From Rhizaria sp. SCN 62-66 (lineage: Eukaryota): 64,000 nucleotides of DNA. Under the pieces are notes generated by a model. It was given only the letters and a program-made list of their open reading frames with translations, searched no databases and was not told the DNA's origin. Below, piece after piece: positions 15,090 through 60,365 of the stretch. The position numbers were made by a program, and so were the translations under genes. How positions within the stretch are numbered: position 1 is the stretch's first letter; every line of letters starts with the position of its first letter. The DNA is taken from NCBI GenBank assembly GCA_001724265.1, contig MEDY01000157.1, forward strand, positions 1 through 64,000. The letters run 5' to 3'.

Positions 15090-18000
15090 TCACACCATCG
15101 CTTCAAAATTGAATGCTTCGACAAGTTGGCGTCGAGATGACACATACACCCGCTGAAGCCGTTGCTGCTGTTGACTCTGCTGGGAGTGACAACGTGGTTG
15201 CGCTAAATGAGAACTGAGCACACCGGGGGCAAAGTACTCTTGTTCACGGTCATTGTGATGCGATATAGTTGGACTAGTTGGTTTTGGGAGCAGGACGATA
15301 AGCTCACCATCATTTTCACTAATCTCACACTGGCCATCGCTCGCACAATCCCTGCGCTCACGGCTGGCGGCACTCAAACCGCCGCTATTGATAATGCTGT
15401 GCGTCTCACCATCGCTCACGGTCATGAGCTTCATTTCCCATCGAGTGGAGCCATCAGCAGCGGTGACAGGTACGAGTACACGCTTACGCTGTTGTGACAC
15501 CAAATGCAGTTGCTGTTGATGTAGTTGTTGAGATTCAACTGGATTGTCTTGCTCTTGATCTTGGAGACACATTGTTGGTTCGCTATGACTTGGCTGCAAT
15601 CGCTTGGACTGTTTTGTAGGTTGATGATGCTGAACACCTGCGTCGGAACCATCGTCAAGAGGCTTCTGAGTCACAGCCACAGCGACCACACCACGGCAGC
15701 GCTCACAGCCATCAAAATCTCTCATATATGCCAGATCGCGTCGGTTCTCTTCACACACATGGGTAAGTGCAAGTGTAACAACATGTGTGAAGCCATAGGC
15801 ATCAATCGCATACAGCACGGCACGGCTTTCGTGATCACAATCTTGCGCGTTTAGGCACGTTCCAATGGTTGCTTGTGGAAACAGTCCGCCGGCAAAGGCG
15901 CGCTCGGCGTTGTGCTCGTTACATGCAAGCTTGATGCAAGAAATACCACCATCAATGTCTCGCGTTTTGTGTTCGTGAATCCGAACGAGGCTACGCCCAC
16001 AACATGCGGAGAGGCAGTGACACTCGCCTTCCCAAGATGTCAAGACAACAACGGAGACTTTCGCGGATGCATACTTGATACCCGTGGCCGCGGCGGTGGT
16101 AAAACTAACAACGCAGGGCTGCGACAAAGCAGTACTTTGTGGCAATGGTAGCTCGCAGTGCCAGTGCACCTCACCACTCGCAGCGCCCACAGCAGTCGCA
16201 GTATTGTCACCAACAAGAACAATGACACCGCGATCAATGTCAAAGTCCGGGCCATTGTCGTTGTTTCCGTCACTGTTCGGCAGGGCAACAAACAGTGGCG
16301 CATGCGTTGCCGGAAATGAAATCGGAAGCAGAGTCGCAAATCGTGTTTTCACAGTCACCACATTGTCAAAACGGTTCGAGATAATGTTGTCCTTCGTGTC
16401 AAAGTTGGTAGTATTTGCGTTGGTCTTGTTGTAATCCAAACACAAACAGTACCCTTCGCACGCAATCACAAGACGACGCGCGTCACCGCTACGCACATTA
16501 TCGCTGGTGCTCCCGCAATCGATATCGTGATTGCTGCGTGTGACAGAGACGGGCAAGACCAGAGGCGGGGCGCGGCATCGCACCAAGTCCACATCACTAA
16601 AGCTGTTCACAGTTGACTCACTGCCAAAGTGCTCAGACATGTACGAAGGCGTGTGCACACTCCACAGTCTCCGCACGTTCCATTGTGCACGACTACTTGC
16701 GCAATCGCTCACACGCCCATATTCAGAAGCCGCAGTCGCTTCAATTCGGGAAATTGCAATTGTGCCGTTGCTGCTCGCACAACAAACATCCCAAGCCCCA
16801 CTTAAGGTCCCGCGGATGAAGGTGTTCGAGCATGAGTCAACGCTTGTTGTTGGGACACTGGCGGAAGTGATTGTGACTGGGCCGATAATGTAGGTGTCAT
16901 CGTCTGAGTGCGGACTTAGACCAGCAAATGGTTCCCAAGAAAGAAGAGTGTGGCCGCAGCAAATGCAGAGAAGCTCAGTGGTTGTGTTGCCGCAGACGTA
17001 CACAATACCAACACCAACTGAGGCGATCCCGCTCGCGCTGCCGTTGCAGTGGAGCACCGAGCCCGGTGTATCGAGTCGAGGGGCTCCGGCAAACACGCGG
17101 CGCCACAGCACGCGGCCAGCCTCATTGTGACGATCAGTCGTATCACGCATATCGTCAGCAATCGCAACAACGTCGCCCGCGTGAGAACCTGCGAGCACAA
17201 CCACGGTCGGCGCAAAGGGCCCGTTGTTGTGTGACAGCGCTGGCAGCAGCGCAGTTGTGACAGTGGGGGCAGCGTCGCCGCATCCAGCAATCGGAACTGC
17301 CCACAGGCGCTTGAGGGATACCTGTGCACTCAAGCGGTGCACGTGCTGCTCAGGCTTGTTAAGGCTCCACGTGGGCGCATTATGAGTGACACGCATACCA
17401 GCATTGTCGGTAGTCGTATCAGGCAGCGTGTTTGTCTCAAGCTGCATCATTGATGCTATCAACTTCACAAGCGCACCCATTGTCTCAGCTTGCAACACAT
17501 CGCAAGCCCGCACTCGGTTAGCCGAAAGTCCATGCTCACCATGAGTCACCATTGCGTTGATCACGTGAAGTACGTCAGTAAGTCGGAGTGCAATGAGAGT
17601 CGCTTCCATCGACCCGCCGCCGAGGGCGGCTAGACTTGAGGACAACCAGTCCGACGGCAACTCACTTGAGTGTGCAGTAGACTGAGATGCTTGTCGCTGT
17701 GGAACTGGTAACGAAAGCGTTTGAATGAGCACCGACTCTATTTGCCACATAATTTTGGCAATGGGACTCTCAGAATCCGGAGGTGCAACCACGTTCTGAG
17801 CGTTGTGGACTAGCTGTGTGAGCGCACGCGCATCGCCACCAACACGCTCTGCCGTCGATTGTGGTCGCGTTAAGGACTGAAGCTCGCTCGATGCAGACGT
17901 GAGTATGTTTGCCGAAATACGCGTAAGCACTCCGCGGTCAGTCTTACCACTCGCGAGCATTGGTGTTGAGAGCACAAATGACTGCGAAGCAGCGCGAACA

Positions 18001-21000
18001 GCCGTCGGCTCCGTCGTCGCAACAACAGAGGTAGGAAGTACCAACCACACAACACCAGCAGTCGGAATGACACAAATCTCAGCGCCACCTTGGCTACAGT
18101 GGTTTTCGCTGTTGTTGTCTATGGCACCGTCAAGTAGCAACGTTGATGACGCCAGTAGAGAGCATGAAGACACGCGCCGCACTTCCGCAAGCGTTGCTGC
18201 AACTACTGAGCAAGCATCAGAAACAGTGACTGTGTGATAACCGCATCCGGTCACAGCAACCACAATAACCTTAGCGTTGTTATCGCCCCGACTTAAAACA
18301 GTAACCACCGTAGCTTGAAGCGACCGGTTGCAATTGCCATCTTCGGAGAGCTGATAAGCCGCAGCGTCTAAAAAACCCTGGGCATGCGCTTGCAGCGCAT
18401 CCAGGTCGATCCATTCCCCGCTGCGCTTGATCCTGCGGTCAGCGCGTCCGATGTGAGTCAGCGTGACGATCGGCGCCGCGTCGACGCTTCCGCCAGTTTC
18501 GTTGTTTGCAAGGGAGAGTCGTAGTCTGACGACATCTCGCGTGTAAACGCAACGCACTGTGCCCACGCTGATTGGGGATGTGTTGTTTGTTGCTGCCAGT
18601 GGTTGTGCAGTAGAGAGTTTAGTGACTACAAGCATTTTTGCATACGCAAACACCGTTCCGCGCTTATGTTCATTGATATTGCTCGCGACTGTGCGCAGGT
18701 ACCCCGCGTTAACACCAGGACCAGCAACTGCCAGTTCGCCAGTGACAACGAGTTCATCCAGCATGGTGATATTCTTGCTATCTTTTGCCGCATTTGTTAA
18801 GCACGTGGTCACGAGTGCTAGAGGCAGCAATAAAACCAAGCTGTCGCGATCACCACCGCTATTGTCGACGTCTTTGTCTGCTTCCAAGAAGCCCGACCTG
18901 AGCCGTGAAAGCACCGTGTCCACGCTGCCAATACCTGTGTTCATGTGATCACTAGATAGCGCGTATTGCGTCAGCCCTCGCAACAGGCACTCACCACACG
19001 TGCACTTGTACCCGGACGATACGATACCGTCTTCGATCAACTTCTAGCAGTTGCGAGGATGACTGTCCCACACAACGCACCTCGTCGGCGGAATCGGCAG
19101 CATGAAGAACAACTCAGCGTGGGGCAAGCCCAGTCCGATCGGCGCCCACAGTTCTCCACTCGACCGGGCAAGCTCAGCGCGCCCAGTGCAAGCGCTTGTG
19201 ACTGTGAGCGGGGTAACTGTAAGCAATTCTGTCGGTAACGTATGATCGTCAGCAAATGCCGTAAAGTTTTGTTCATCGCTGTGCGACGCTGAACAGGAAG
19301 CGTTATTGTTTCGAGTCCATGTGGCATCTGCCCCCGTTTCACACGAGCCGTAGACATTGACGATACGTACATCGCCAGAAACGCATTTGCAGCCATTTGA
19401 GAGCTGCGCAACCGAGCTCTTGGACCCATGTGCTAAGTGGCGCGAGTCAGCGCCATTCAACGTGTTAGAAAAGGCAGTGATTCGCTGTGCTGAGATGATA
19501 GTGAGGGGCTCTCCAGACACCACGATCTCTCGAAGTACAATGCATTTGTGTTGACAGCAACTCCTGCTAGCGTTCTTAGTATCGCTGCTGTTGCCGATAT
19601 GGTTGCCACCGTAATATAGCGCTTTTGCGACGCCAAGTGCAAGCGAGGTCGGCACACACAGTCGAGTCACCCCCCACTGCTTCACCGCTGCTGCAGCGAC
19701 AGTTGGCACTGCGAAGGGCCAGGGAGGCATACACACGACTATAGGTAGAGGGCTATCAATGCTGAGGTTTGTGTTATCAGTGGGTGTAACTGTAGCAGCT
19801 TTTCTAATACAACACTCGCAAACGCCGCCGCTGTATGGCTGCAACGCTTGCGCCAGCGAGTCCACGAACGACAATGCTGCAGTCCACGTGCTTACCACAG
19901 GGGCCAATGTAGCGCTTGAACTGATGTCTTTGACCACGATATGATCACATGCCGTACACGGATATTCGAGAGCGGCAGTGCTGCGAGAAAGGCGCGCATA
20001 TAGAGACTGAGATGTGACCTTGACCAGCCTTGGCACTAGCGGCGCAGCCGCGTACGTGTGGGAATCTGCATTTTGCTGCGATAGAGAGCCTGATGTGGGC
20101 ATCAGGGCAGCAACATCAACACCACGAGTCTTAATTTTCATATCTTCCGTCTTTGCCCTAACAGAGCCCTCATTCGCACTCACCAGCAGTGTGTTTTCGC
20201 CGTTGCGCACCTGTTGCAAGCACCTGCCTAGTGTCCTTGAGCGACTTGCAAGCGTCTGCAGTTGGTTTGAGAGTGATTTGTGGTTCGCGGATGTAAACGG
20301 AGAATATAAACTAGGAGAAATGCAATTAACGTACGGAGCAAGTGACACTACACGCAGGCGCAGAGTCACCAGCTGTAGCTGCCGTTCATCGTCAGAAGCA
20401 ACAATGTCTGATGTTGTCGTCGTTGTCGTCGCTGCCTCCTCGGAATGGCAGATTGGAGCTGGCACACACACCGTAAACGTAACAAACGAGCTGCTACTCA
20501 GCGCCAAGGCCTCGGCACGCGCCACTGTGTCCTCCTCCTCTTGATCATTCTCTTCAGATCCGGAACTGGAGATGTTGCCTGAGCTGGAGGGGGAGCTGGA
20601 TGGGGCCGCTGCGACTGACAAGTGCCGCGGCAAGAGCGCAGCAAACGCGGCTGGGCTCGGCAACATCGTGAACACGATTGCGCTGAGAGGGCAAAGGGGC
20701 AACGCAGAGTCAGCGGTTGAGTTTGTTGCGGACGTTTCTGTTAATGACGCAGGTTTTGCTGTCACCGGGACCGTGGCCAGTGCAACGCCTGTGAGAGCAG
20801 ATAGCAGCTTGTCGCTTGCTAACTCCGCCGCAGCAGCATCTGCAGTCGTAGCTGTCGCGCAGGCCAAGCCATTGTCCGCGCCAGCGCCACTGTTGGCGCG
20901 AGCGCTCGCGTTGTAGCTAGTGTTCGTTGTGCTTGTGGTGTCGCACGCAGCCGCGCAGGCTTCGTGTTGCCACGGCAGTGGCGTATACACGCACAGCGGG

Positions 21001-21482
21001 CTCTAAGCACCCCCATCTGCGCCACCGTGCGCTGCATCTGCGACGCTGGGTGTCGTTGTTGCGACCGTGGTGACCGTGAGCAGCGCGATCAGCGCAGCGG
21101 CGGCGGGGCCCGACGGGTAGGCGTGGAGAGCGGCCACCGTGCGCGGCGTACCCACTGCCTCAGTAAACCCCGCTTTACCATCAGTCACGGTCGTGTCTTT
21201 AATATAGGTGTAAGCAGCTTCGTTTGTCGCGGTGCTAATTGGGGGTGACAGGAGCGAACACGGGGCGGGGTGCTGTTCTGCGGGTTGCGAGACTGCATGT
21301 AGAGCTAGACGACTGATAGATGAAGCCATGGCAGCTGTGTGCGCAAACGAGTAAACGCGCGCAGTAGAACAGTCAACACTGCCAGCGCTTATGGCAGTGA
21401 AATTTAGTGATGGATCGATATATGCTGGTAGATGATTCGTTAGGAGTGCGCGTCGTCGCACTCGCTAACGCAGCCACTCCAT
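15090..21482 (-). CDS. AASDH: AASDH/ACSF4-like NRPS-type protein (adenylation + carrier + PQQ beta-propeller), ~2130 aa, with 3 in-frame TAG codons
   Basis: One frame from ATG 21482 to TGA 15090, broken only by TAG at 21465-21467, 21003-21005 and 19044-19046. A-domain motifs PTSGS, VVSGEPL, NVYGSCETG, PIG, GELAVAGPGVNAGYL, GRADRRIKRSG, SGKTDR; carrier motif LGGGSM; propeller start LWAVPIAGCGDAAP...LAGSHAG. No intron detected. Confidence 0.78.
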
Positions 21483-21804
21483 GACAAACTAAAGACCGCG
21501 CCTTGTACTACAAAAGCAAAGTTGAGGCGTATAATTAAGGGAAATAAATCAACAGCTCTAAGAAAATCTGGAGACACAAATGCGCATCTAGAGACGGATG
21601 TTTGATGAAGATATTGTTGTGAGATGATGCGATCGCAGCGAGCAAGAAGAGGAGCGACCACGACGCAGACGAAGGCAGGTTGTAACAAAAAATGACTATG
21701 TATCGGCGTGGTTTCAACCACAAAGGATCTAAAAACAGAATAATCCCAAAGAAAGACTAGTTATACATCAAATTACTGCGTTATGATTATTGAGAGTTCC
21801 GACT

Positions 21805-23649
21805 TCAAGCCACAGTCCCATCAGGAACAGTCCTGCTGCTCGAAATCGTTGGCATTGACCCAGAGCCAGAGCCAGAGCCAGAGCTCATGCCAGAGCCAGA
21901 GTTGGAGTTTGAGCTCGCGTTTGCGAGAGCAGCCGCGGTAGTGCCGACGCTGTCGCGCGACACGTCGCTCAAGTCCGCACTCGGGTTGCTGCCGCCACTA
22001 TTGCTGTTGCTGTTGCTGCTGAGCAAGTTGTGGCTGCTGTTGCTGCTGTTGCTGTTAGAGCTGCTAGTGCTGCTAAGAGCAGCCGATCTCGCCTTGCCGG
22101 TCCCCGTCGCAGTCCTGGTCACCGCTGCGGCCGCCGCAGCCGCCGCCGCGGCCACCGATGTGCTCTGGGCCTTGGCGATGGCCTCGGCGGCCGCCAGCAG
22201 CGCCGTGGCCGCGGCAGCAGCGGCCTCGGCAGCCTCGGCCGCGGCCGCAGTGCTCGCGGAAGCCGAGTCGGCGTCGGTACTGTCGCCACTGATGTAGTCG
22301 TCGCCGTTGGCAGCTGTGCCGACAGCGTCGTCATTGTTGTTCCCGGTCGCATTAAGGCTGGCGCTGTTTGCGGCGATAGCGGCGTCAGAGCCGCTCGCTG
22401 CGGTGGACACCGGGGCCGGGGCCGGGGTGGGGGCGGCGGACATGGCCAGGGGCGTCGCCAGCCCCGCCACAACCTCGCCGCCAAGGTCCGCATTCGCGTC
22501 AAAGTGATTATTCGCGTCAAAGTGACTGTGAGCACCGGCGCTACTGGACAGCGGGCTGCCAGGTTTCTAACTACTCGGGCTGCTGATCGGCGCGTGCAGA
22601 GAGTTAATCACGCTCTAGCTAGATGCAAGCGTCACAGCAACGGCGGTCATAGAACGGCCCGGTAATGTCCTGTTGCCATGAACCGCACTCGAGGTAGCGC
22701 CGTCGACAGCATTGACAGTGTTCGAGCCCGCGAGACCGTTGACAGTGTGTTGCGCGTTGTGTGCCGGCGGCGACAGGGGGGCGAGCAGCGGCGACGGCGT
22801 CGCAGCCGTCCCCGCCCCGGTCGCGGTCGCGGCCGCAGCGGCGGCGATGGAGGCGAGCCATTGTGGCGTCAACGACGGCGTCGCGTTCGCGGGCGTGGCA
22901 CCGGTCACTGGCGAGGGTCCAGTCACAGGCGTCGCCCCAGTAGCTCCCGTTGCGGGCGTCGCGGAGGCAAAGAGCTGTGGCGACGCCGCCGGCGTGCCAC
23001 CCCCGGCGCGTTTCACGAGCGTCTGCGCGTTTTGCAGAGACAGAGGCGACATGGCAGCCGAGGCAGCCGTTGATGCAGGAGCTGAGGAGGTCAAAGACAA
23101 GACGGAGGTTTGTAGCAGATGCGGACGAAGCGAGGCCGAGATGCGGCGACAAGAGGCGCCCTGGAGCTCGGCGACCTTGCCGAAGAGCGCGTACCGCACG
23201 CGCGCGAAGAGCTTGTAGCCCAAGTCGCGCGCAAATGGCGGGATCAGCACCAGGAGCGCGGCGGCGACGTAGGCGATCGGGGAGTCGAGCGACATGAGCG
23301 TTTGCAGCGCCGCCGTCGAGTGCAGCACAACGGCGCCGGCGTGGATGGCGATGATTGAGTCGGTGCCGTCGGGAATGGCGAAGCGCGACTGCAGGGCGAG
23401 CCCCTCCGGCGACGTGATGGCGGCGAAGACGAGGCGGCACTGGGGGTCGCGGTCCACACAAAAACCCAGAATGGAGTCGCAAACGACGCAGGACGCGTCA
23501 AAGAGAACAATCACCGGGTTCGCGGCAACGGTGGCGTTGAGTTTCTCGTTGTAGGCAACTTGAAACAAGGGACGGTAGCGCCGCACGACGTACAGGTAGC
23601 CCCAGGCGAGGCAACACGCAAGAACGGCCAATAGCAGTGACGCGAACAT
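21805..23649 (-). CDS. DCC-family (DUF393) thiol-disulfide oxidoreductase with N-terminal hydrophobic anchor and low-complexity tail, ~614 aa if 2 TAGs are read through
   Basis: VLFDASCVVCD (DxxCxxC) and RDLGYKLFARVRYALFGK. ORFs 22615-23649 and 21805-22470 are in the same frame, separated only by TAG 22615-22617 and 22567-22569. Ends TGA. The domain call is firm; the extension is less certain. Confidence 0.8.
22492..22527 (-). repeat. 18-bp tandem duplication (two HFDAN units) downstream of the two TAGs
   Basis: attcgcgtcaaagtgatt followed by attcgcgtcaaagtgact; the unit is six codons long. Confidence 0.8.
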
Positions 23650-24070
23650 CGATCACAAAACACAGTTACCGTGCGTCCTGCCTGCTGTAAAAGAGTTCAC
23701 TAGTTATTTACTACACAAAAAGAAGATAACACGTCTTTAAGTGCCGGTAGAACGAGTGTGAGGCAGGATAAGCGACGTTGACGACGATCCCCGACGATTC
23801 TCCGACCCGTCTGTGATCGAATGCAGTTCGTGTTTTCTAGCCTTCGTCATCGGTCGGTCGAGGGGTAGTCGGTTCAGAAAATCGCATCAAGTCCTTTTAC
23901 AACAACTTTAGCTAGTTTATTATTGCTACCAGCGTTTAATTTGCACATCATAGCAAAATCTCATTTTATTGAACTTTCTTCGTTCCCTTTCATTCAGCGA
24001 GTAACCTCGACTCCGTTTTCCGAGCCACCCCTTTCGTCACGGAGCGTTCTCATCGCCGGCCACAGCCGCC

Positions 24071-30079: not shown

Positions 30080-30633
30080 TGACCTCAATACTTCCGGAGG
30101 GAGAACAAATACTTTCGCAGGGAGTACAAATATTTCAACTCGTATCGTCTTTTAGTTTTATTTAGTTTCAATTTCTTTTATTCCGTTATGCGACTCATAT
30201 ATTGCGCAGCCGAAGGAATATCATTTGAGGTTTTTATTTTGAGGTTCTTATTTCAACTATTATAGGTTTGCGATTGCGCATTTGCAATCGCGTCTCGCAC
30301 AATATTTTACAAATACAATCTCATTATTTTACAACTGATCAACAGCTTCCTGTGCGATTATTTTCTTTGTTTCTCCGGTGTGACAAGTCCGTTTTGCGAG
30401 CCTGGGTGCAAATTGCTCGAATAAAATACAATCTTTCATCAGCACTTTTATCGTTACATGTACTTCACAAGAATTGCACAAGAAATTCTGTATTGGGGTC
30501 TATATATTCGAGAATTGATGGCGACAGCAGAACAATCAAGTTGATGTTCAAAAGCAATGGCGTGCTCGAACGAACACAAACACGTGCGTAATTTTGTTCA
30601 CCAGGGTTCACCTATTATAGCATAACATGAGCA

Positions 30634-33600
30634 TTAGTAGTCGTCTCCGTCAAACTCCAGTTGGTCACCTAATCGCGCCTGCTCTAACGCGTCGATATCA
30701 GGCCTATTGACATAAAACGCCGCCGTCGCCGCCGCAGCAGCTTGTTGCCTTTGGTGCTCCGACAGCTTCTGCACCCCTGTCTGTGACTGAAGCTGCGTCT
30801 GCGTCTGCGTCGTCTGTGGCTGCAACTGCGGCTGCTGGTTCGGCCGCTGCTGAGCATCGGTGTTCGCGCGACTGTTGTCCGTCACAGCGTTGCTCGGCTT
30901 AATGCCCATCGCGCCAGTCTGCGCCGGATTATCCACATCCACTGCACTTACGTTCAGCGGCTCCGTACTTACGTAGCCTGCCAGCTCGCCCCAGAACCCC
31001 TTAGACTCGACCAGCCGGTCACGGACTGCGCGGCCCACGAACGGAGCCGTGTAAGTGGTGTAAGTGCCCGTGCCAACAGGGACAGGGGCTTGCTGCGCTG
31101 CAGAGTGTTGAAGAGGCTGCTGCTGTTGTTGTTGTTGATGCTGCGGATACTGTTGTGAAAGAGCGCAGGGAAGTTGGCAGGAGCGGCTGTACGCGCCTGC
31201 TTGCGGTGGATTCCAAGCGCGGTTAAACAAACAAGTCAACTCGCTGCCGCGAGCAGAAGTTAAGCCGCTTCCGGGGCCTCCTCGCATGTTGTTATTGTTG
31301 TGAAAGCTTGACACAGAGCTGTAGCTCGCATTGCTGCCGCCGATAGCGCTGCCGGCGCCAAACACAAAGGCCTGCATGGCTACCGATAAGGCCGGAAGGG
31401 CGGGACACAGAGACTTGGGCAACAACGCCGGTGACAACGTGTGCGAACTTGACTGAGGTGGCGACTGCAGAGGTCTATTGGCAGTAAAGCTGGCTGCGTT
31501 GGAATTGTTCATTGCGGGCATTGCGAGACATTTCTTCAGGTCCCATTGGTACTGGTACTGGCCGTGAGCTGGAGAGCTCGGGTGACCGTGGGTAGGAGAG
31601 GCGCCGTTGCTCGGAGCCATAGCGTTACTAGGAGGTGGAGGAGCGAGGCATGCGGACACTGGAGGCGGCGCCGGCGGCCAGTGTGACAGCAGCAGCCACT
31701 GGGCCGGACTGAGTAGGGACCAGAAGCTCAGGCCGCCGCCGCCGCCGCCGCCGCCACCGCCGCCGCCGTTGCTTATTGCCCCCACGGGCCCCGCCGCCGC
31801 CGGAGAGCTGGGGCCAGAATTAGAGATATAGCCAAAGCTGGAGCTAGAGCTAGAGCTCGCTGTCGCAGCCGCGCTCACGGTGCTTGCCTCTTGCTGCTGC
31901 TGCTTGAGATGCAGCAGCGCACGGCCGCGCGCAATAGCAGACAGCATCGGCACAACAACGATAGTCCGCTCTTTGCTGCTGCCCAGCACGACAAGCCCGG
32001 CCGCACCCGCCCCTGCCCCCGCTGCAGCAGTCGCCGCGGCCGCAGTGGCTTCTGCGGCCTCCGCAGCGCGCGCCGCGGCCGCAGCGGCAGCCGCGCGCGT
32101 CTCGGCCGTCTTGGTCAGCGCCGCGATGTTTGCACTCTCACTCGCGCTCGCACTCGTAATCGCAGTACCCGTGTTAACATTGTTGTCGCTGTTGGCGGTG
32201 GCGGCAGCAGCAGCAGAGGCGGCTTCCAGCGCGGTGGCCGCTTTCGCCGCGGTTTTGCCCAGCGCGTTGGCCCTGCTGCGGGCAGTCACCGCGGCGTCCG
32301 CGGCCGCCCGCGCCGCCGCCGTAGCCGTCTGCTGGCAGCGGCCGTGGTAGGCCGCGTTGGCGACGAAGCACGCCGTGAGAGCGGTGGCGCGCGCGGCGGC
32401 GGAGGCGGCTGCGTGGTGGCACAGCGGGCCCGTGATCAGCGATGTGCCGCCCGAGCTAGAGCCAGAGCTTGCGCCGGAGCTGAAGCCGGAGCCAGAGAGA
32501 GAGCCAGTGCTACTGATGCGGCTGTTGACAGATGTACTCGTACTAGGACGCAGATTAGCACTTGTGTTTATCATGCGACTAGGGGTGTCGCTTGTTGTAA
32601 GTGCTATTGTGCCCAAGTTATCGCGATTGACAGATGTTTTATCGGTTGTCGTGAGATGTGGCTTAGCTTTGCTTGAAGAGTCGTAACGAATGTGGGCAGA
32701 GTCAGTCAGACTGTGTCCATACTCAGCGCCAGCATCCTCATCCTTATCGCCATCGTCGTCGTCGTCGCCGTCGTCATCGCTACTCCATTCGTTCCTGTCC
32801 GCGCCACTTAGTCCCCCCGTGTACGTACCCCTGCAGTCTAAGGGTTCCCAGTCGTTGAGCGCGCGCGCGAGCACCACGGCGCGTGCCGCGACGGCGCCGC
32901 AGTAACTGCCCACGCCCACGGCGACGCCGCCAAGCCCCGCGCCTCCCGCGCCCGCGCCTGCGCCTGCAACGGTGTTTCCTTCCAAGCCAGATCCAGAGCT
33001 GGTAGCGTTGCTGAGCGTCTGTTCTTCGGTAAACGAGGCGTCGCCCGCACCACCGCCGCCGCCGCCGCCGCTGCCTGTGGCGGCGCGGTCGAGGCGTGCG
33101 CCGTCCGCGAGGACCTGGGCTAGCGAGAGAGACTCGGCTGCGGCGGCGAGCGCGTCAAGAACGGAGAGCTGCGACACCTCCAGTTCCTGCGCCCTCTCCA
33201 GGTCAATCATATCACGGTGCAATCGCCCTTCGAGTTGGTACAGCAGAGACGGGTCCGAGTTCGAGTCTAAGTGGATCTGCGAGCCGCCATCTAAGCGGCG
33301 GCGTGAGTCTAAGTAGCGAGCTCCTGTTAGAGCACCCAGAGGCTTCTTCGGCGCACCCGCGGCGCTAAAGCAGTTCAGACTGGTGTCGTTGTCCACGCAC
33401 AGCGGTACTTGCGTCTTTAAGTTAGGCCGCGCGTAGCCCCGCCACTTGTTGTACCTCAGCCCGCCGCCGCCGCCACTGACACTTAGGTTCGATGTAAGGG
33501 GCAGGTAGTTGCCGTGGAGCCAGGCCACCGCGACGGCCGCGTCCAGGTCGGCGGCGGTGAGCGCGGCCTCAATCGCGGTGCCGCCTAGTCGCACGCCGGC

Positions 33601-35226
33601 CGCGGCCGAGGCGGCGGCGAGCTCTGTGTGCCGACAAGAAAAGGGAGGACAAGAGATAGGATAAGATAAGCATAAAATGCATTGAAACAATGTAGATAAA
33701 TACAAAAAAGAATATAGTTCTAGTTCGAAATACTGCACTTTTGATGATTGATACTGTTGTTATCGTTGTTGATGTGATTATTTAGTGTGGTGATCGTGAT
33801 CGTACCTGTAGCTGACACGGTCGGTGTCTTCGAATCACGCACTGCCGCAGCTGCAGCGGCGGCAGCAGCTTTCGCTTTGCTTGCTTTTGCTGTCGCAGCC
33901 TTTGTAGTGACAGTGGTTATTGGCTTTGCCGCTGGAATTATGCAGCCTAAGGGTGGCAGCGAGTAGCGACTAAGTAGCTTCACTCCGGACGCTGACGCAG
34001 CGACCGCAGCCGCGGCATTAACATCATCGTCCGCGCTCTCACTCGCGTTCTGCGGCGTCGATGTAAGTAGGCGGCTTGATCGTGTAAGGGCCTTGGCGCA
34101 GCTCAGCGCCCGCTGCCACTGCCGCAGCCGGTCGACTTGCGTGACGGCAACGGGCTCAACTGCAATCGCCGCGGCAGCGGCGGCAGCAACCTTGGCTTTG
34201 GCATACGCACGACTACTCGCAGTGCCATGGCTCGAGCGATTCGTAACACGTCGGCGACACATGCTGGTGCTTTGACCGCGCGTCGTCTCGGTGCAAATAG
34301 CGCTGTTGTCGTCCCCAGCGGCGCCGCTCGCAGCGTCGATCGGCGGCGGCTTTGGGAACAACAGTTTGCCGAGCCCGTGGAAGCTGGACAGCTTGTCGTC
34401 AGCCGTCGTTGCGCCGCGTGGCAGCTCCAGCGTCGGCGTGTCTCGCTGCCGCAGCAGTAGCACAGCGCGCTGTGCGGACGCGGCCGACGCCGGCAGCGAG
34501 GGGGGCTGTGGGCCTGCTGACTGCGAGCGGGGCGACTGCGACTGCAAGCGGGGCAACTGTGACAGCAAAGAATTCGTCGTGGCCCCGGTCCCAGCTGCTG
34601 CGGCAGCGGCGCCGTCTTTAGCCACGATTGCCTTCGCGCAGTCGCTTTGGTGCGCTATCAGGGGAATCAGAGCGTATTCGAGCTGCGTGATGCCGGCCCT
34701 GAGGTCGCCGCCGCAGGCCTCAGCGGCGGCAGTCAGCAGCGCTAGCCACGAGTCCTCACTCAGCCACAGACGCACGCACGCGCCGCTCGGAGTGTGGCTC
34801 GAAGCAGAGTCCCCACTTGCATCGGTGGAGTCGGTGGCGTCACAGCTGCTTGAGGTGGTGGTGGTCGCGTTGCTGGTCTTCGCCTTTGCGCCTTTAGCTT
34901 TGCTTTTACTGTTCGTCGCAGGGTTATTGTTCATGCTTAAGTCGTAGTCGTGGTTCAGTGCAAGTAGGTACTTAGTCACGATTTCGAGCGCGGCACTTAC
35001 ACCTGGAGGCTTGCGGCCTTGAATCCCCGCGCCCAAAGTTACGCCGCTCCCGTAAGAGCCTGTGCCCACAGTCAGTAGCCGTTTCATTGATTCGCTGAGA
35101 TGGCTTGAAGAGTGCGAAGACCCACCCTTAGACGTGTGAGCGCCCTTTAGACCCCCAAGACTAACCGTGCTCTTGCTCTTGCTGCCGCTCTTGATGCGAT
35201 ACTCTACCTCTGACTCGATATCAGCT

Positions 35227-35258
<32 letters not shown>

Positions 35259-37853
35259 CGCTGCTACAGTTTGCGCCTCCGCTGCAGCCGCAGCCACAGC
35301 AACAGCCTCCGCCGCCGCGACCGCCGCCGACGCTTTGATAAAGTCCTCATTGGACATCGGCATAACCCCTTTGCTGACCAACACCTTCGCCAACGCGGGC
35401 AAAGCGTAGCTCGCAGCGACGGCGTTGAGGTGCAGCAGCTTGATGTCGGGGCAGGCCTTAAGCGCTGCCAACGCGCCCGCTCCGGTGCTGTAAGGGGCGG
35501 CTAAGGGGTTCGAGCATTGTAAGTACCTCGGCGCGCCGTAAGTGGCCTCGTCCTCGGCCCCGGCCTCGCTCACCGTCGTGAGTGTAAGTACCACAGGTGT
35601 AAGGGTCCGGGCAGCGACTGCGAGCAGCGCGCGCCAGAACAGCCCCATTTGTAAGGGGTCTAGCGTCGACACAGGTGGGTCGTGGATGACGACTAAGGGG
35701 GCGCTTACACTATGTAAGGGCGACGGTGTTGTTACACCGCTCAATGAGGGCGTGTTTGGACTACCCATATTGCTACCCATACTGCTGCCCATAATGGCCA
35801 GCCTCTTAGCGCTGTTGCTGCTGATTCCAGTAGTCGCGGCAGTCGCGGAAGCCGCAGTAGACATGGCCATCATAGTGGTTGCGGTGCTGAGCTGCTGCGC
35901 AGCTGCGGCTTTGACACACGTTTGCGTCATAAAGCTGGTGAATTTCGCGAGCGGAAACGAAGCAGCTGCAGCGCCGGCCGGCGGCAGCAGTGCGTGCGCA
36001 CCTTTGTTGTACATGTTCATCGACGCACTCAGTGCGCCGGCGCTAAGGCTCGCGCTCATGCTGCTGTCGCCGCCGCCGCCGCCGCCGCTGCCGGTATCGA
36101 GCGAGCCCGAGACTTGGCCTGGGGCCTCGAGCAGGTTAAGCCGCATGCGCTGCGCAATTTCGGCCACCGCGGCCGTTTTGCCGCAGCCGGCGGGGCCAGT
36201 GAGCACCAAAACGACGGGAACGCGCGGGCCCGCGCGCGCGGACGCGTGGCTGTGGGCTGACAGGGCCACGTGACTGTGAGCAGCAGGAGTACCGCCGAGA
36301 CTGTTGCTGCTGCTGGAAACACCGGGAGCAGCACCTAAGCAAAGCCGCGACAATGCCGAGCGTAGCCAGTGCTCGATCTCATCGAGCTTCTTCTGGTGCA
36401 AAGTTAGGCCGCCCGGGGGAAGTTGATCGTCAGCCCACATACTGTGCGACAGCAAAGGCGGGGGTGGCTTAACAAAGTGCAAGTACCCCTCCCGAGACTG
36501 CTGCTCTTGCGTCCACTGAGCGCTTGTGTGGCCCTTAAATGCTGTTGACCGTGGGCAGCCCTGTTGGTGTAAGTATGGTTGCGAGTGTAAGGGCAGCAGC
36601 GCAGAAGGAAGCCTGCCGTCTAAGGGGGGCTGTTGAGACATCGACGTAAGTACGTCGGCAAACTTTGCTGCTGATGTAAGTGCCTCTTGCGTCGCTGTGG
36701 CTTCATCAGTCGACTGAGACTCTGACTGCGTCTGGGGCTGAGGCTGAGGCTGAGACTGAGACTGAGGAAGCTGGGGCGGGGGCCGCCTCTGAGCAGTGTG
36801 CACTTGACGTTGTTGGTGCTGGTGCTGCAGCTGCCATTCAAGCTTGACAGGAGCAGCAGCAGCCCGTGCATTTGAATGCTTATCGCTGTCCTCGTCATGG
36901 TCGCTGTCATTACCGACATCATCGCTGTCACCGTCGCTGTCGCTACCGAGATTGACAAAGCCCTCGCTATCACTCTCGTACTGGCTGCCGACCTTCGCGC
37001 TGATGCCACGCCGACTGCGAGCGCGCCCTGCGTTGCTGCTGGTGTTGAGATTGACTGCATTTTCACTTATCGTGCCATCGGCACCATCGCTGTCACTGTC
37101 GTCAGCAAGCACACGTGCGTTGCGACTCCGCCGCTGCGAATGCTGCTTCTGCTGGTGCCGCTGCTGCTGCTGTTGCTGCTGCTACGCGGCCGGCGACTGT
37201 GCATGAAATGAGTTGGTTGCTGAGGAGTAAGCGCTGCCACTGCCTGCTGCAGTGTCGCCGCTTCTGTTTGCAGACCCCGTTGCTGACGGGACTTCAGCTG
37301 CAGCCGCGGACGGCGGCGACAGAGGCCGCTTGCGTGGGTTGACGCAGCTTGCACTCGCGGGACTGCATGAAACCAATGTAGAGCCAGGGCCAACGACAGA
37401 GGCAGAGGCAGTCGGATGCATTGCCCGTGATTGCGCCAGCGCTTGCTGTGACGGCATCGGTGGCTCCACTGGTCCGTACAGCTGCCGCTGCTGCTGCTGC
37501 TGCTGCTGTGCTTGTCCAAGCACTGCTGCTGAGGCTGTACTTGGTGACGTCTCGCGCTCGTCGTTGAGATGCGGCCGAGGTGGGAACATTTCGAACGAGA
37601 AATGCGCTGACTATGCGGATTCGGACCCAAATAACAAAGCCGGCGCAGCAGTCGTGTCTTCAGCCCCCATGGCGCCGCCGAAGTCCTCGCTCGAGTTGGC
37701 GGCCTCGCTGTCGCTGTTGGTGGTGGTGGCCACGACTCCTGCGTTCGAGGCGGAGGGCGAGCGGCAGTCAGACTCGGAGTCGGAAATGATGATAACGTCC
37801 GAGTCAGAGTCTGCAACGTGAGCGGGCTACACCCTGTGGGCGTGTGTCGCCAT
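30634..37853 (-). CDS. RAD17: Checkpoint clamp loader RAD17/Rad24, ~2345 aa, 2 exons, 3 in-frame TAG codons
   Basis: Exons 37853-33806 and 33623-30634 (intron GTACGA...CAG). LTLHQKKLDEIEHWL, Walker A LTGPAGCGKT, GDLRAGITQLEY, FHGLGKLLFPK. The 5-prime frame continues through TAG 37182-37184, 37611-37613 and 37827-37829. Exact start uncertain. Stop TAA. Confidence 0.85.
37182..37184 (-). other. Recoded TAG (probably Gln) heading a polyglutamine run
   Basis: GCG TAG CAG CAG CAA CAG CAG CAG CAG CGG on the minus strand. Confidence 0.85.
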
Positions 37854-38471: not shown

Positions 38472-39618
38472 TCAACGCGAGCTGACGCTGAGGTAAAGCA
38501 CGATGATGACCATAGCGACAACCATGCAACAGAAAATACAGCACATGCGCTGGCGCTTCTGCATCAAATACCGGTTGCTCTGCTCAATATCCTGACTCGC
38601 CTCGACCGCGCCCAGCTTCACGTTGCCGATGTTCGCTTCGAGGTCGTCGAAGACGCTGCTCGCGCTAGAGATCAGGTCCCCGATTTGCGAAATCATCGAG
38701 TGCATCGAGACGGCGTCGCGCGCAACAACCTGGATACGCTACGCGCGGTGCTTCGTCATGCCCAGCACGAACTCGGTCTCGATCTGCGTCTTCTCGTCCA
38801 CCAACAGGCCTTGCGCCTCGCTGAGCAAAGATCCCAAAATATAGCAAAAAAGGAAAATATATACACAATTATGCAGGCGTGAGTGCCGGATATGTTTACC
38901 ACAAATAGACAACACAATTATATATATGACTCTATAGTTTGGGCGGAGGATATAACGATACCATGAAGATATGTGCTCTTATGTGACTGGAGACGTACGT
39001 TTGCTGTTGCAGCTGCGAGTGGTTGCCATGGCTGTAGTAGTCGTCGTCGCTGCCGCGGCCGCCGTCGCGCACTGTGGCCCGCTCCTGCGCCAGCGCAGCC
39101 GCGTTGGCCTTGCCCTGTGACGGCGCCTGCTGCGCCTGCTGCTGCTGCTGCTGCTGCTGTTGGCGCTGCTGGTGCTCCACTGCGACGGAAGTAAGGTCGT
39201 CGAACGAGTCGTCGGGGTCAGCGTATACCTACAAAAACGTCGTAAACAGGACAAGGCAATAATAAATCAGCACAAAGAGGTACACAGCAACGATGTACAA
39301 AACAAAGCTATTGTACTTGAGTTTTAGCTCCATACGGGTTGATTCGTGTTGCGAAGTGTGATGTTTCGCTCGTACCTGAATCGCGCCCGCAGGCATTGCC
39401 TTCTTGTTGCGGCCGGCCGCTGTCGCCGCACTCGTCGTGCCGGCCGCCACGGCCGCAGTGTACTGGTTATGAGCGGCTGATGAGGATGACGCGTTGGCGT
39501 TCGCGGGCACGGGGTCAGAGACGAGCGAGCTGCGGAGGCGTGCGAGGAGCTCGCTGTCGTTGACGCTCTCGCTGTCGTCGCCGTTGTCGTAGATGTCAGG
39601 GCCTGCGTGGTGGCTCAT
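38472..39618 (-). CDS. Syntaxin-like (Qa-type) SNARE, ~273 aa, 3 exons, 1 in-frame TAG
   Basis: Exons 39618-39376, 39228-38999, 38820-38472 join in frame. SNARE helix RA*RIQVVARD...FDDLEANI...ASQDIEQS, basic juxtamembrane KRQR, Cys-rich C-terminal TM segment. TAG at 38739-38741. Stop TGA. Confidence 0.82.
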
Positions 39619-41910: not shown

Positions 41911-41950
<40 letters not shown>

Positions 41951-46188: not shown

Positions 46189-46756
46189 GCGCAGCCATGT
46201 CTGTCGCCACACTTTGTTATGACGCTCAACTGGCTACCTGCCTGTTTTATCTGTCGTTCATGATTGTGATCCAGAGACAAGATTTTACTTAATTTAAATG
46301 TTGCATTTCATTGCGAAAGTGTCGCAGAGATGGATGAAAAACATGTTTACATAGAAGATTCATTAATATTTAATACATATTTATCAACTCATCTTGAATA
46401 CGTGTTATATAGTACTCCTTGTGCGTGCTAGTGTGAATGCTGCGTCAATTCATGTGGTATGCACTGTATGTGGCTTGAGCTAGCTCTACACAGCAACAAA
46501 AATAGACAACCGACTGCTATGGCGCTTTATCAATATCTCCTTCAAAGAACCGTTATGTAACCCACGCACACCACATGATATTTTCGACGGCAGAGAAAAT
46601 GTATTATTTCAATAATGTTGTGATTGTTTCTCATCTTGTCCCTCTATTTCGTAATATGAACATGCCAGTTCGTTACTCCTCCAAACTTGACCTTTCCTCC
46701 TTCCCACAGCCACCTAGCCAGCCGCGGAGTCTGTTTCTTCCTGCGTGCTTTATTAT

Positions 46757-55700: not shown

Positions 55701-56147
55701 TATATCTCACTTCCTGGCTTCCTGAAGCTGCTCCAAGCTGCTGGCTTGCTTTCCAACGGCACTGGGGGCGCTAACGCATCCAGTAACGCAGGGTTTGGCT
55801 TTGGCAATGGGACGAACCGTATGGGGCCGTCGGTGACCGGAGGCGGCTTGTTTTCCCTCGCGGCCACGACCCCAGTCTCGCTGTCCCCGTCCGCGCCGCT
55901 CAAGGTGTGCCCGCTGACCGAGGCCGCGGCCGTGGGGCTGTACCTGCGCGCGCTGCAGCTCCCGCTCGACGGCTCGCGGCCGCCGATGCTGGTGCGCGCC
56001 ACGTTCCCGCCGCTGCTCTGCGCCATCGCCGAGGCCGTGATGCCGGACCCGTTCCAGGCGCTCGCGAACAAGCTCGAGACGCTGCTCGTCGCGCACCTTA
56101 TGCCCGTTGTTGTCGGTGCACAACAGCAACAGGGGCAGCAGCGGTAA
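46757..56147 (+). CDS. Large hypothetical protein (~3084 aa, 2 exons) with coiled coil, split calponin-homology-like domain and degenerate EF-hand-like C-terminus
   Basis: Exons 46757-53994 and 54131-56147 join in frame (GTACGA...TAG intron) with no internal stops. Stop TAA. Domain calls are by eye only. Confidence 0.75.
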
Positions 56148-56377
56148 GAACACTTGCGCAGACCCTGTGACTCGGCTCACCAGTGTGTGGTGACCATGGT
56201 GACGCGAGAGAAGCGACGAACTAGATACCAGAGCGCAGATCGTAAATGTGTGACGGTGGATGACCGTCAGAGTTATAATAGTTCATATATTCGATTACAT
56301 ACATACCTAATCTTTATTTTCACTTAATTATACGCTCTAACATGCTGTTTTAGAACTGAAACACGATATTCTAAAGG

Positions 56378-59300
56378 ATGTCCGTTCCTGCCTCAACGCT
56401 GGCGCGGACGTTCACGCTTAGCGAGGTTGCGTAGCACAACACAGCGAGCGATTGCTGGATGGTCATTGATGGCCGCGTCTACGATGCGTCTACCTTTATC
56501 AATGAGCATCCTGGTGGCTCCGAGGTACGTTGTCACACTCTAACAGCAGTTCTTCGGTGCTGATCCTGACGTCGAAGTTTGATTGTCCTTGCATACGCAC
56601 AGTCCTTGTGATATCTCATCACGACAACCATCCATCGCGCAATATGTTCGACCACATATACTGTACGTTTTAATTTGATAGATCATCAAGTATCATGCAG
56701 GTAAAGACGCATCTGCAGCGTTTAACGATGTCACAAATCATGACCCGCCCCACGTCCAACGCCTCTTGGCTTCGCTCTGCATCGGTGCTCTCTCGCAACC
56801 ACAAGCCAGCAACAGCAACACAACGGCAACAAAAGAGTCCGGCATGACCGCGGCGACCTCTTCTAGTAGCGCTTTTCCAGCTAGCGGGACCGCTTGCACG
56901 TAGGCTACTGACTCGACTTCGAGCAAACAGAGTGCTGTGAACGCAACTGCTCCTGCTGATCAGGTCACAGCTGTTGAGGCTGATAACGAGGACGAGGACG
57001 AAGACGAGGACGAACCTGTGCCAAGCAGTACATCTAGCAAGTACAGCAACTACACGCGCTTTAGCAATCGCGCCAACGCGAGCAACAGCGGCAACCTCGG
57101 CAACACCGTCGGTAAGTTCTCATTTGCCGCGCCAGCGCCAATACCGCTCTCGTCTCTCTCGACCGCCAACACAAACAGCAGCAACATGACCAGCACAGGC
57201 AGTAACACCAGCGCGACGCGCGGTGGCGCCGCCGCCGTTGCTGGCGCGCGCGCGGCTCCTGTCGGCACTGCTCCCGCTCCTGCTACTGGTTCTGTTGCCG
57301 CTGTCGCTGCGCCACGTGCATTCGGCAACTCGCTCCTGCTGCCGGGTCAGCACCTCTACGTCAACCCCAGCACCAACAGCAGTAAACCCACCACAATCGG
57401 CTCGAACACTGGCGTTGCGCCCCAGGCGAGGCACGGCCAGGCCGCCGCGGACCCCCGGCAGCAGCAGTCGCAATCTCTCGAAGTCAAGCCGGGGCCGCTA
57501 GACCGCGTGATCACGTACGCCGAGCTCGAGTCCCGACCGGCGTCGCAGCCGCCGTGGATGCTGATCGACACGACGGTGTACGACCTGGACGGTTTCCTGG
57601 ATCAGCACCCCGGCGGCCGCCGCGCACTGCTGCAGTACATCAACACTGACGCCACGGTGCCGTTCCACAAGATCACCGGCCACCGCTTCCTGCCCACGCA
57701 GCGCCTGCTCCGCGAGAGGGCGATCGGCCGCATCTGCCCCGTCGAGCACGCGGCGCGCGAGGCGGCCAAGCTCAAGAATAACGCCAACGCGGCGGGCAAC
57801 GGCAGTAACAGCAGCAACAGCAATGCTGATGGCGCCGATGACGCGGAGGGTGGGCTCGTGAGGCGAGGGCTGTTGACGCTTATCGCACGCGAGGAGCGCA
57901 TGAACTGCAACAGCAATAGTCATAACAATGACAATTACGCTAGCACTGACGGTGACACTTGTAACGCGAGTCCTCGTGGTGCGAGTGATTGCGATACGCT
58001 GACGCTGCTGTTCAGGGTCGAGGGCATGGTGACCGTGGGCAGCGATGTGCCAGCCAACGCGGTGATGGACGGGTACTCAGACGACGCGTCTATGGGACTC
58101 TTAGAGGGTGACCAATGCCACGGTGGGCCATCTGTTGTTTCGACGGGTGGCTTGACCGTCCAGTCACTGCCACGACTGCCTGTTCCTGTGTTCAACGCCG
58201 CAAATGCCAATGCCACCAACGCTTGCTCAAAGCAAGAACCTATGAATGACAATAACGTTGTTACTGCTGCAGCCACCAATGCGAGCGCAGCAAGCGGCGT
58301 TGACACGACGCTTGCGTGGTTTAAGGGCGAAGAGATGCCTGAGTTCATCACGAAGACACTCCAGGAGGCCCTATTGATGTGCAAAGCTAGATCAACGCCT
58401 GTCGCTGCGTCCGCGAGTCCGGATGATGCTTCGGCGGCCACTGCTGCGACGTCAGTGCCGACGGTCAGCGAGCTTTACGGGCCGGTGACCCCGGTCAAGC
58501 TCAAGATCCCCACTGGCAAACACGTCCGGCTCTTCACCTCGGTGCTGACATCGCGACGCACGCGCGCTGCGACACTTACATCTCCTGACGGCAATGTAAG
58601 TGACTCTAACGCCAATGGAGATAGAAATGCGCTGAATGAGGGTGCCATCTCCTGTGCGTGTGACATCTATGAGGATACTGTGGAAATGACGAGCCGTGCG
58701 TACACGCCGGTGTGCGACTTCGACGGCAAGTACCTCCTCTTTGTCATCAAACGCTACTTGCCTTCCCGCAAATCAGCAACAAAGGCTCTTTCGAGCAACA
58801 CGAATCCGAACTGTGATATTACATCGGTCATGACTGCAAACTTCTCCAACTTGCAGTCGCAGTCGCATTTGCAGTCACAATCGTTTCAATCGCAGCAGCC
58901 GCAGTCGCAGGTGCCCCCCGCCGCGCGCACGGTGTCGTCCTCCCTCCACGCGCTGCCGCTGGGCGCAACTGTGTTCTGCTCGCTGGCCCCACTCGGCAGC
59001 TACACGCCGACGGCGGTGATCACGGGCCGCTACGCACGCATCGTGTGTCTGGCCGCGGGCACGGGCGTTGCGCCCCTGTACGCACTCGCGGCCCGCGTCG
59101 TCAACAACAGGTTCCGGAAGCCCGGTGCGCTCGTCTTTGTCAGCGGGCAGCGGCACTGGGGCCGCGTCGCGGCGCCCGCGAGCGGCAGCGCGGGCGGCAG
59201 CGCGAACAGCAGCAGGGGCGACGGCAACTGTGGCAATAGTGGAAAGGGGACTGTCAGCAGTAGCAGCGGAGCGAGTGGGGAGGCGACTGTGCTAGGGACA

Positions 59301-60365
59301 GATTTGGCCTTGCTTTCGCTGTGTCAGTGCGACGATTGCCGTGCACGCAACACTGCCAAGATACAGCTTCAGCAGCAACAACAGCAGGATCAAGAATATG
59401 AGCAGGGACAAACGGCCGTGCTGAGCAGTGGCGTCCGTGTACGTGCGGTTACTTCTGACGGTATAAGTGACTCTAATAATAACGATGGCCTCTGTGCGAG
59501 CACTGTTTGCTCTCGCGATGGTCCCCCCTATCGGTTTCTGCCGAGCACTTACATCACCAGCACAGCTGCTGCCGATGTACCTGCTCCTGCGCTGCCCCCT
59601 GGCCTGCAGAGCACCATGCGTCTCAAAACCTCCAACACGAGCAGTGTTTGTGCATCAGTCTTGAACGCGAACCCTTGCGCGATGGTTGATATTAACGCTG
59701 ACACCTCGACTGTAATGCGTGATCGCGCAAGCTCTAGAGGCAACGCTAGTGCAAGCTGTATTGCGAGCGATTGGGCTGCTGAGCTCAAATGCAAGGCGAG
59801 TTTTGCCAAGCTCTGGCTCCTCCACATGATCTCGCGGCCAGCGCAGCCGCTGTCTCAGAGTGGATCCAATGCGGGCGCAGGCTACATTGACCTCTCAAAG
59901 GGCGCCCCGTTCCCCTTTGACTCCCCGCGCGCGAGTGCGCTGCACGGCCGTGTGACCCCGGCGCTCGTGCGGGCGCTCTTCGCGGCTCTGAACATCGCCC
60001 CAGCCCCCACTGCTAACAGCACAACTACCTCTGGCACTGGCACGGATGTACGTTGTAGCGATACGGCAAGTTTCTCTCAGACTGTGGAGGGTGAGACTGA
60101 CCGGCTCTACAACCACACCAACTGCTGGCTGCACAGGCTCCGCGCCTCGCTCAATCTCAGTCCAAATCGCGGTGACGCCAACGCCCCCGCCTCTGCATCT
60201 GCCGCAATCTCTGCGTCTACGTCTGCGTCTGCGGTGGTCAAACCCGGTGAGGGCACGCTGGTGCTCATCTGCGGTCCGGACGCGTTTGCGCAAGAGATGG
60301 AGGCAACGGTTCGCGCGATGGGCTTCGCGCCGGAGAACCCTAACCGGACACTGTTTAAGTTCTAA
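56378..60365 (+). CDS. Tandem cytochrome b5 domains fused to a b5-reductase (FAD/NAD) module, ~1276 aa, 2 exons, 2 in-frame TAG codons
   Basis: Exon 1 56378-56524 ([32 protein letters not shown]), intron 56525-56681, exon 2 from [14 protein letters not shown] through TAG 56901-56903 into ORF 56937-60365. That ORF has a second b5 domain ([14 protein letters not shown]), [15 protein letters not shown] and LICGP. Stop TAA. Confidence 0.9.
56432..56434 (+). other. Recoded TAG (probably Gln) inside a conserved cytochrome b5 motif
   Basis: GAG GTT GCG TAG CAC AAC = EVA*HN, codon 19 of the gene. Confidence 0.85.

Follow-up and report, generated by a model that had tools for sequence, protein, structure and literature searches.

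Few nuclear genetic codes assign different meanings to UAG and UAA, the cases described in PMC5304391 and PMC11687900 being a rhizarian, Iotanema, Protocruzia, some phyllopharyngeans, Scotinosphaera and one oligohymenophorean. In the fornicate Iotanema spirale, UAG is reported to encode glutamine while UAA and UGA remain stops, and in the rhizarian exLh (Sainouroidea), UAG is reported to encode leucine, 384 UAGs having been counted at conserved leucine columns in 71 genes (PMC5304391). According to the same account, the exLh genes terminate on UAA (56) or UGA (15), and UAG is scarcer in those that are highly expressed (PMC5304391). Further changes restricted to UAG are described for Protocruzia tuzeti (glutamine), for three phyllopharyngean lineages (glutamine in two of them, leucine in the third) and for Scotinosphaera, where UAG stands for serine (PMC11687900). 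Finally, Amoeboaphelidium protococcarum is described as using both UAG and UAA for glutamine (PMC6299283, PMC11687900), and the genomes of this genus are given as about 40% guanine plus cytosine (GC) (PMC10608142). Here we analyse a stretch of 64,000 nucleotides from the contig MEDY01000157.1 (positions 1 to 64,000; assembly GCA_001724265.1, Rhizaria sp. SCN 62-66), hereafter the window, in which ten TAG triplets stand in frame within five protein-coding genes. We consider it probable that UAG is read there as an amino acid instead of a stop, UAA and UGA being the sole terminators.

With glutamine as the residue, the code proposed for the window would be NCBI table 15 and identical to that of Iotanema. 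The two have in common that UAG alone is changed, that UAA is the dominant stop codon and that glutamine is a candidate for the new meaning. Iotanema is however an anaerobic metamonad, whereas the window carries mitochondrial-type GatB and FtsH genes, has a GC content of 61% and encodes a DNA polymerase epsilon (Pol epsilon) that groups with no named taxon in our tree; besides, UAG usage is far lower in the window, and glutamine is no more than a candidate for its residue. With exLh, the window shares UAG as the sole in-frame stop triplet, a similar ratio of UAA to UGA ends (8:5) and a skew of UAG away from highly expressed genes, but it differs by its low usage (10 UAGs in 17,128 codons), by the polar contexts of these codons and by the fact that the sole conserved column hit by a UAG is lysine in homologues. 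The phyllopharyngeans, Protocruzia and Scotinosphaera resemble the window in that UAG and not UAA is changed, with UAA as the preferred stop; unlike the window, the former two are ciliates and the latter is a green alga, and suppressor transfer RNAs (tRNAs) were found there. Amoeboaphelidium, which like the source of the window is a protist of bioreactors and ponds with a stop codon read as glutamine (a candidate meaning here), was rejected as the source, on account of its GC content (about 40% versus 61%) and of the position of the Pol epsilon in a phylogenetic tree, and it also differs from the window in that UAA ends 8 of the 13 window genes. Nuclearia, with a GC content of 44%, was likewise set aside.

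The evidence that carries the proposed code comes first from a gene encoding a fusion of cytochrome b5 and a b5-reductase-like protein (56378..60365, plus strand), which is made of exon 1 (56378-56524), an intron of the GTACGT..GATAG type (56525-56681) and exon 2 (56682-60362), and which ends on TAA. Codon 19 of this gene is a TAG (56432..56434) that falls inside the first cytochrome b5 domain. The segment EVA-TAG-HNT aligns there with EVAKHNT of b5 chains from the PDB, the flanks being identical, and the alignments run through the TAG in the five of five PDB alignments shown (62 chains matched at E<=1). In the same line, the Pfam Cyt-b5 profile scores 52.3 bits when the upstream peptide is included with an X at the TAG and 45.6 bits without it, a gain of 6.7 bits, and its match begins at profile position 1, six residues ahead of the TAG; the domain then resumes past the intron. 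A second in-frame TAG (56901..56903), with 73 open codons before it and 1,153 after it, falls in the linker that connects the b5 domains of this protein.

A comparable situation is met in a syntaxin-like (Qa) SNARE gene on the minus strand (38472..39618), which runs from an ATG at 39618 to a TGA stop at 38472-38474 and is interrupted by two introns (39375-39229, GTACGA..TAG; 38998-38820, GTACGT..CAG). Its last exon contains a TAG (38739..38741) 26 codons past the acceptor, and the part of this exon downstream of it encodes, in the same frame, the SNARE motif and a membrane anchor at the C-terminus, so that a stop at 38739 would remove all that makes this protein a SNARE. The Pfam score of the SNARE domain (E=2.2e-5, 24.8 bits) is slightly under the 26.8-bit cut-off. 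As far as can be judged from the DNA, the TAGs at 56432 and 38739 cannot be ordinary stops. Moreover, an RNA contig of the run X10 (39373-39707) has exactly the extent of coding exon 1 of this gene and carries 99 and 6 extra letters at its ends, which fits a messenger RNA (mRNA) spliced at both flanking introns; this TAG-bearing gene thus appears to be expressed.

An earlier note on this DNA, made without database searches, had listed 11 TAGs interrupting five genes, with the frame carrying on unchanged on both sides of each. A scripted check located all of them at their places and in their frames, together with an additional, unlisted TAG at 21489-21491, and ten of the 11 lie within sequence that is coding on both sides, spread over five genes. 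The exception is the TAG at 21465..21467 on the minus strand: there, as at 21489, no frame has a coding signal (log-odds of -0.4 to -0.8). It comes after the five codons ATG-GAG-TGG-CTG-CGT, a better start (GCCATGG) follows downstream at 21329, and this TAG may belong to a 5' untranslated region or end a five-codon upstream open reading frame (ORF) instead of being part of a coding sequence.

Frame continuity was assessed with a codon log-odds model, which was fitted to 10,126 codons from exons free of TAG and which scores the six frames on either side of each TAG. The frame of the gene (frame 0) ranks first on both flanks of the TAGs at 21003, 19044, 22615, 22567, 38739 and 56901, and on the informative side of two others, downstream at 37827 and upstream at 37611. 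The latter two positions, together with the TAG at 37182, belong to a RAD17-like gene on the minus strand (30634..37853) that is composed of exon 1 (37853-33806) and exon 2 (33623-30637), ends on TAA and shows a weak match to the Rad17 P-loop family (E=0.0012, below the cut-off). Codon 9 of this gene is a TAG (37827..37829) in the context MATHAHRV-TAG-PAHVADSDSD, downstream of which frame 0 has a log-odds of 0.45 and the two remaining frames have -0.54 and -1.14; the second one (37611..37613) is situated in the N-terminal region, and the third (37182..37184) is directly followed by CAG CAG CAA and further glutamine codons (AA-TAG-QQQQQQQ). For the latter, the log-odds are near zero, but the frame has 142 open codons ahead of the TAG and 1,153 behind it.

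Two more TAGs fall in the low-complexity tail of a gene for a DCC1-like thiol-disulfide oxidoreductase (21805..23649, minus strand; PF04134, E=6.4e-15, domain at residues 49-159), which ends on TGA if TAG is read through. At the first of them (22615..22617), the log-odds of frame 0 are 0.24 upstream and 0.38 downstream, those of the other frames ranging from -0.5 to -1.0, and at the second (22567..22569), they reach 0.28 and 0.35. The last two TAGs stand in a gene of about 2,079 codons on the minus strand (15090..21329), which ends on TGA. The TAG at 21003..21005 is preceded by 153 open codons and followed by 652 (log-odds of frame 0 of 0.18 and 0.34), and the one at 19044..19046 joins open stretches of 652 and 1,317 codons, and no other stop triplet of the window has flanks as large. 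This gene had been labelled AASDH-like (over 15090-21548), a name for which no search gave support: no AMP-binding, carrier or PQQ-repeat domain scores above its cut-off, no Pfam family is found at E<=0.01 and only PQQ_2 at E<=10 (17.9 bits for a cut-off of 27.6), and no relative was found in the PDB, which leaves the gene an orphan. Searches of a 5.8-billion and a 1.84-billion representative protein library for relatives spanning the TAG at 19044 returned only a 1,284-residue fragment from the window itself (1 of 7,999 scored candidates in one library, and the sole match in the 1.84-billion one). Since no relatives were found, continuity at this TAG is argued from frame length and codon bias, and the gene is almost without such bias (GC of 0.58, 0.52 and 0.54 at the three codon positions, the third-position value, GC3, being 0.8-0.93 in its neighbours).

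The gene models used here are approximate and comprise 21 exon segments with 17,128 codons. Drawn free of TAA and TGA, these segments contain 10 TAG, 0 TAA and 0 TGA in frame. Because the TAG-bearing exons are long single unbroken stretches, among them stretches of 2,079, 1,336, 1,227 and 614 codons, it is nonetheless informative that they contain neither TAA nor TGA nor a frameshift. In the two other frames of the same exons, TAG occurs 63 and 109 times, TAA 48 and 141 times, and TGA 286 and 300 times; with the off-frame TAG share of 0.18 as null, the probability that ten of ten in-frame nonsense triplets are TAG is about 4e-8. The simpler approach of tallying stop triplets with open flanks of at least 100 codons (TGA 20, TAG 9, TAA 6) was abandoned as confounded by the shadow frames of GC-rich DNA, several single TGA or TAA triplets in non-coding frames also having open flanks of more than 150 codons. 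The base 3' of the ten TAGs is A in four cases, C in four, T in one and G in one. As to what precedes them, an alanine codon (GCT, GCA and three times GCG) comes directly before five of the ten TAGs, alanine making up 14.8% of the residues encoded by these exons (uncorrected p of 0.009), and the dinucleotide CG directly precedes four TAGs (three GCG and one ACG).

The ends of the genes point in the same direction. Among the 13 gene ends of the window, eight are TAA, five TGA and none TAG, and the ends of the Pol epsilon, FtsH and b5-reductase genes coincide with domain ends. Apparent TAG ends are encountered only at 33720, in the RAD17-like gene, and at 54130-54172, in a giant ORF. The former lies within the RAD17-like intron (33805-33624, minus strand, GTACGA..CAG), whose phases fit and which joins exon 1 to a 1,041-codon frame; the gene does therefore not end on this TAG. 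The latter lie within an intron across which the giant ORF is joined from its two pieces, again with fitting phases. More generally, the remaining in-frame TAGs of the longer frames (56679, 33720, 39229-39231, 2675-2803) are intronic or form intron acceptors, the one at 56679 being the acceptor of the b5 fusion intron and no codon.

Introns are easily recognised in the window: they start with a GTACGT or GTACGA donor, measure 127-230 nucleotides, are rich in AT and pyrimidines, end on YAG and appear as AT-rich islands amid GC-rich exons. Besides those already mentioned, they are found on the plus strand at 9170-9331, 9716-9840, 13006-13142, 40425-40593 (about) and 44631-44758, and on the minus strand at 42104-41894. 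The intron at 40425-40593, in the peroxidase gene, is spliced out in contigs of two RNA runs. An intron scan of the window yielded no candidate intron over any of the TAGs at issue. On this point the earlier note, which had seen no GTACG-type intron removing the TAGs, proved right, as it did on the lack of internal TAA and TGA and on the lack of a shared 3' context. Its central proposal that UAG is sense while UAA and UGA are stops draws support from domain continuity in the b5 and SNARE genes, same-frame coding potential, the gene ends, the recurrence of the TAGs in assemblies of other studies and the lack of spanning introns. The similar numbers of internal TAA and TGA by which it would have recognised pseudogene decay are not seen (10:0:0), and the tally of terminal codons that it had called for gives 0 of 13 TAG in the small sample of the window. 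From the DNA alone, TAG as a sense codon with TAA and TGA as stops is well supported, and from this we infer translation through TAG.

By analogy with the known UAG-only codes, UAG would be translated at the ribosome by a tRNA whose CUA anticodon pairs with UAG but not with UAA, and the release factor eRF1 would no longer compete effectively at UAG, UAA and UGA remaining terminators. Several points limit the case for UAG as a sense codon. No tRNA gene was detected in the window with ARAGORN and Rfam, nor any Rfam match of any kind, and the eRF1 gene is not among the window genes. The absence of TAG from 13 gene ends is weak when taken alone (p of 0.02-0.12 if the expected share of TAG is set at 0.25-0.15). 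The sequence around seven of the ten TAGs is of low complexity or orphan, so that the length of the open frame and the codon bias are the sole guides there, and the whole evidence base amounts to ten codons in 64 kb. In addition, not one TAG occurs among the 11,708 codons of a set that includes the strongly biased conserved genes (Pol epsilon, EFL1, FtsH, GatB, glutathione peroxidase and others), and since the conserved, biased exons hold none, no hyperconserved column is hit by a TAG. Finally, no TAG is covered by the RNA contigs listed, including those of the runs X6 and X10; the RNA depth is nil or almost nil in the bins 37100-38427 and 56356-57000, which is uninformative either way.

TAG makes up 0.058% of the codons (10 of 17,128) and is unevenly distributed: with exon GC3 spanning 0.54-0.93, nine of the ten TAGs are found among the 8,743 codons of exons with a GC3 below 0.77, and one among the 8,385 codons of the other exons (p=0.013). 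This rarity and the preference for weakly biased genes fit a young or poorly decoded reassignment, and they also leave room for partial readthrough. We tentatively suggest, at rather less than an even chance, that the window reflects an independent reassignment of UAG in a protist lineage known from metagenomes only, caught at an early stage in which TAG has disappeared as a terminator and has come back in coding sequence at about 0.06%. If this were true, the organism would offer a natural snapshot of stop-codon capture, recurrent in wastewater bioreactors and with existing polyA RNA data.

The same figures could be explained if UAG were ambiguous, in other words if eRF1 still recognised it while a suppressor or near-cognate tRNA read through it usefully, at a reduced protein yield, TAG possibly ending genes elsewhere in the genome. 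Ambiguous codes are described in other protists (10.1101/2022.04.12.488043, PMC4967479), and the rarity of the codon, its concentration in the exons of lower GC3 and its lack in strongly biased conserved genes also speak for this reading. Nevertheless, any loss would be multiplied in genes that carry two to three TAGs, some of them near the N-terminus, and both the lack of TAG among the gene ends and the lack of a common base after TAG speak against ambiguity, which we regard as unlikely. Programmed readthrough of single genes was discarded as well, in view of up to three TAGs per gene, of the location of several of them in the first 20-230 codons, upstream of functional domains, and of the varied 3' base.

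Less credible still is the standard code, under which the TAGs would be real stops. The five genes would then be truncated or be pseudogenes, or each would represent an upstream ORF or gene and a second gene that shares its frame by chance. The low-complexity or orphan nature of the sequence around seven of the TAGs and the long open shadow frames that GC-rich DNA yields could be invoked in its favour, and the TAG at 21465 may indeed end a five-codon upstream ORF. Yet such stops would cut the b5 domain and deprive the SNARE protein of its motif and anchor, while coding log-odds persist downstream in frame. The standard code would, moreover, require a same-frame continuation ten times over, and a decay that gives TAG only, never TGA, TAA or a frameshift (the probability of about 4e-8 computed above).

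A correction at the RNA level under the standard code, either by U-to-C editing of UAG to CAG or by unusual splicing, seems slightly less probable still. The RNA contigs listed cover no TAG and are compatible with it, and a CAG would also suit the glutamine run that follows the TAG at 37182; but the introns of the window are clearly marked, with none lying over a TAG, and splicing out the TAG of the b5 or SNARE gene would break the domain alignments. U-to-C editing of nuclear mRNAs is very rare.

The DNA at these TAGs is correct. This DNA recurs in metagenome runs that several studies obtained from bioreactors and wastewater. In the run X3, from a different study, no difference is observed over 37191-38509 and 53656-57000, and the TAGs at 37611, 37827, 56432 and 56901 are kept; in the run X4, from a third study and from a slightly diverged strain with scattered differences, the TAGs at 37827 and 56432 are kept. 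Among the 40 differences listed of 51, none falls on a TAG. This comparison bears on the contigs listed, outside of which lie the TAGs at 37182 (the X3 piece starting at 37191) and 38739 as well as the stretch at 15-24 kb. Assembly or sequencing errors, which the earlier note had named as a threat to its proposal, are hardly conceivable with the same TAGs present in contigs of other studies at four sites (X3) and at two (X4), and nothing was found in their favour. In the region 3' of the peroxidase gene, the X4 strain is one base short at 41275 and has 19 additional bases inserted behind 41435, and it shows scattered substitutions elsewhere; because it carries such differences, at least two strains exist across different plants and studies.

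Regarding the amino acid that UAG would specify under the proposed reassignment, the earlier note had favoured glutamine, which is also the likeliest residue in our view, with about an even chance. In its favour, the TAG at 37182 directly heads a run of seven glutamines; with 24 of the 17,128 codon positions flanking a glutamine run of four or more, at least one such case in ten TAGs has a probability of about 0.014. Glutamine is also the commonest outcome of a UAG change among the other lineages described in PMC5304391 and PMC11687900. On the other hand, the b5 column, which is the one conserved position hit by a TAG, is lysine in the five of five alignments shown, and the SNARE position is serine or threonine in syntaxin 7 and 13, so that the glutamine proposal is only weakly supported. 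By our own reading of the alignment, this TAG of the SNARE heptads would not occupy a layer position. The ten contexts are without exception polar or disordered and none is hydrophobic, which fits glutamine, glutamate, lysine or serine better than leucine or tryptophan. The earlier note had likewise disfavoured leucine and tryptophan from the contexts, but the sample is too small to rule out leucine, and lysine, glutamate, serine and leucine are all possible. A search of the 5.8-billion protein library with exon 1 of the b5 fusion gene gave 14 candidates, none of them significant.

The source of the window is an uncultured protist of wastewater, and its lineage looks like a new one. A quick maximum-likelihood tree of Pol epsilon was computed from 37 rows (the window and 36 sequences chosen from 120 listed matches), and the placement that it provides is coarse, rhizarian, amoebozoan, alveolate and excavate sequences being absent from it. 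The window Pol epsilon pairs with one metagenome protein (53% identity), within a fully supported clade of six environmental sequences that is outside the animal-fungal clade and the plants and that stands weakly (83) beside a clade holding a stramenopile. When metagenome contigs were scanned with the C-terminal exon of this gene, 234 pattern matches were obtained, none of which was confirmed. No report of a UAG-only code in a GC-rich wastewater protist was found in the open-access literature searched. With one more independent case, from a protist that is GC-rich, poor in introns and endowed with mitochondria, such codes would be documented over a broader spectrum of lineages and genome types, and the low TAG usage would make the organism useful for testing the loss of a stop codon followed by its recapture. 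At a more practical level, gene callers based on the standard code will split or truncate such genes in metagenome bins; the protein libraries carry just the 1,284-residue fragment of the orphan gene.

The content of the window is otherwise that of typical eukaryotic nuclear DNA, and includes the genes for Pol epsilon (7199-14957), an EFL1-type GTPase (314-5610), mitochondrial-type GatB and FtsH, a glutathione peroxidase and the weak RAD17-like ATPase, together with several long low-complexity ORFs. The donor GTACGT (sometimes GTACGA) is unusually uniform among the window introns, many of which have a CTAAC- or TTAAC-like motif 15-30 nucleotides past the donor and not near the acceptor, and in the GatB intron, a long (CT)n microsatellite (about 41900-41960, minus strand) sits directly ahead of the acceptor. 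The low-complexity proteins (24005-30079 and 46718-54130 on the plus strand, 30634-33759 on the minus strand) contain short His-Gly-His repeats (AHGH, HGHGH, HGHS) amid runs of alanine, serine, asparagine and glutamine. Finally, an ORF of 2,024 residues shows a sub-threshold match to bZIP (E=3.5e-4), and the bZIP-like ORF terminates on the tandem stops TAA TGA at 30077-30082 (plus strand).

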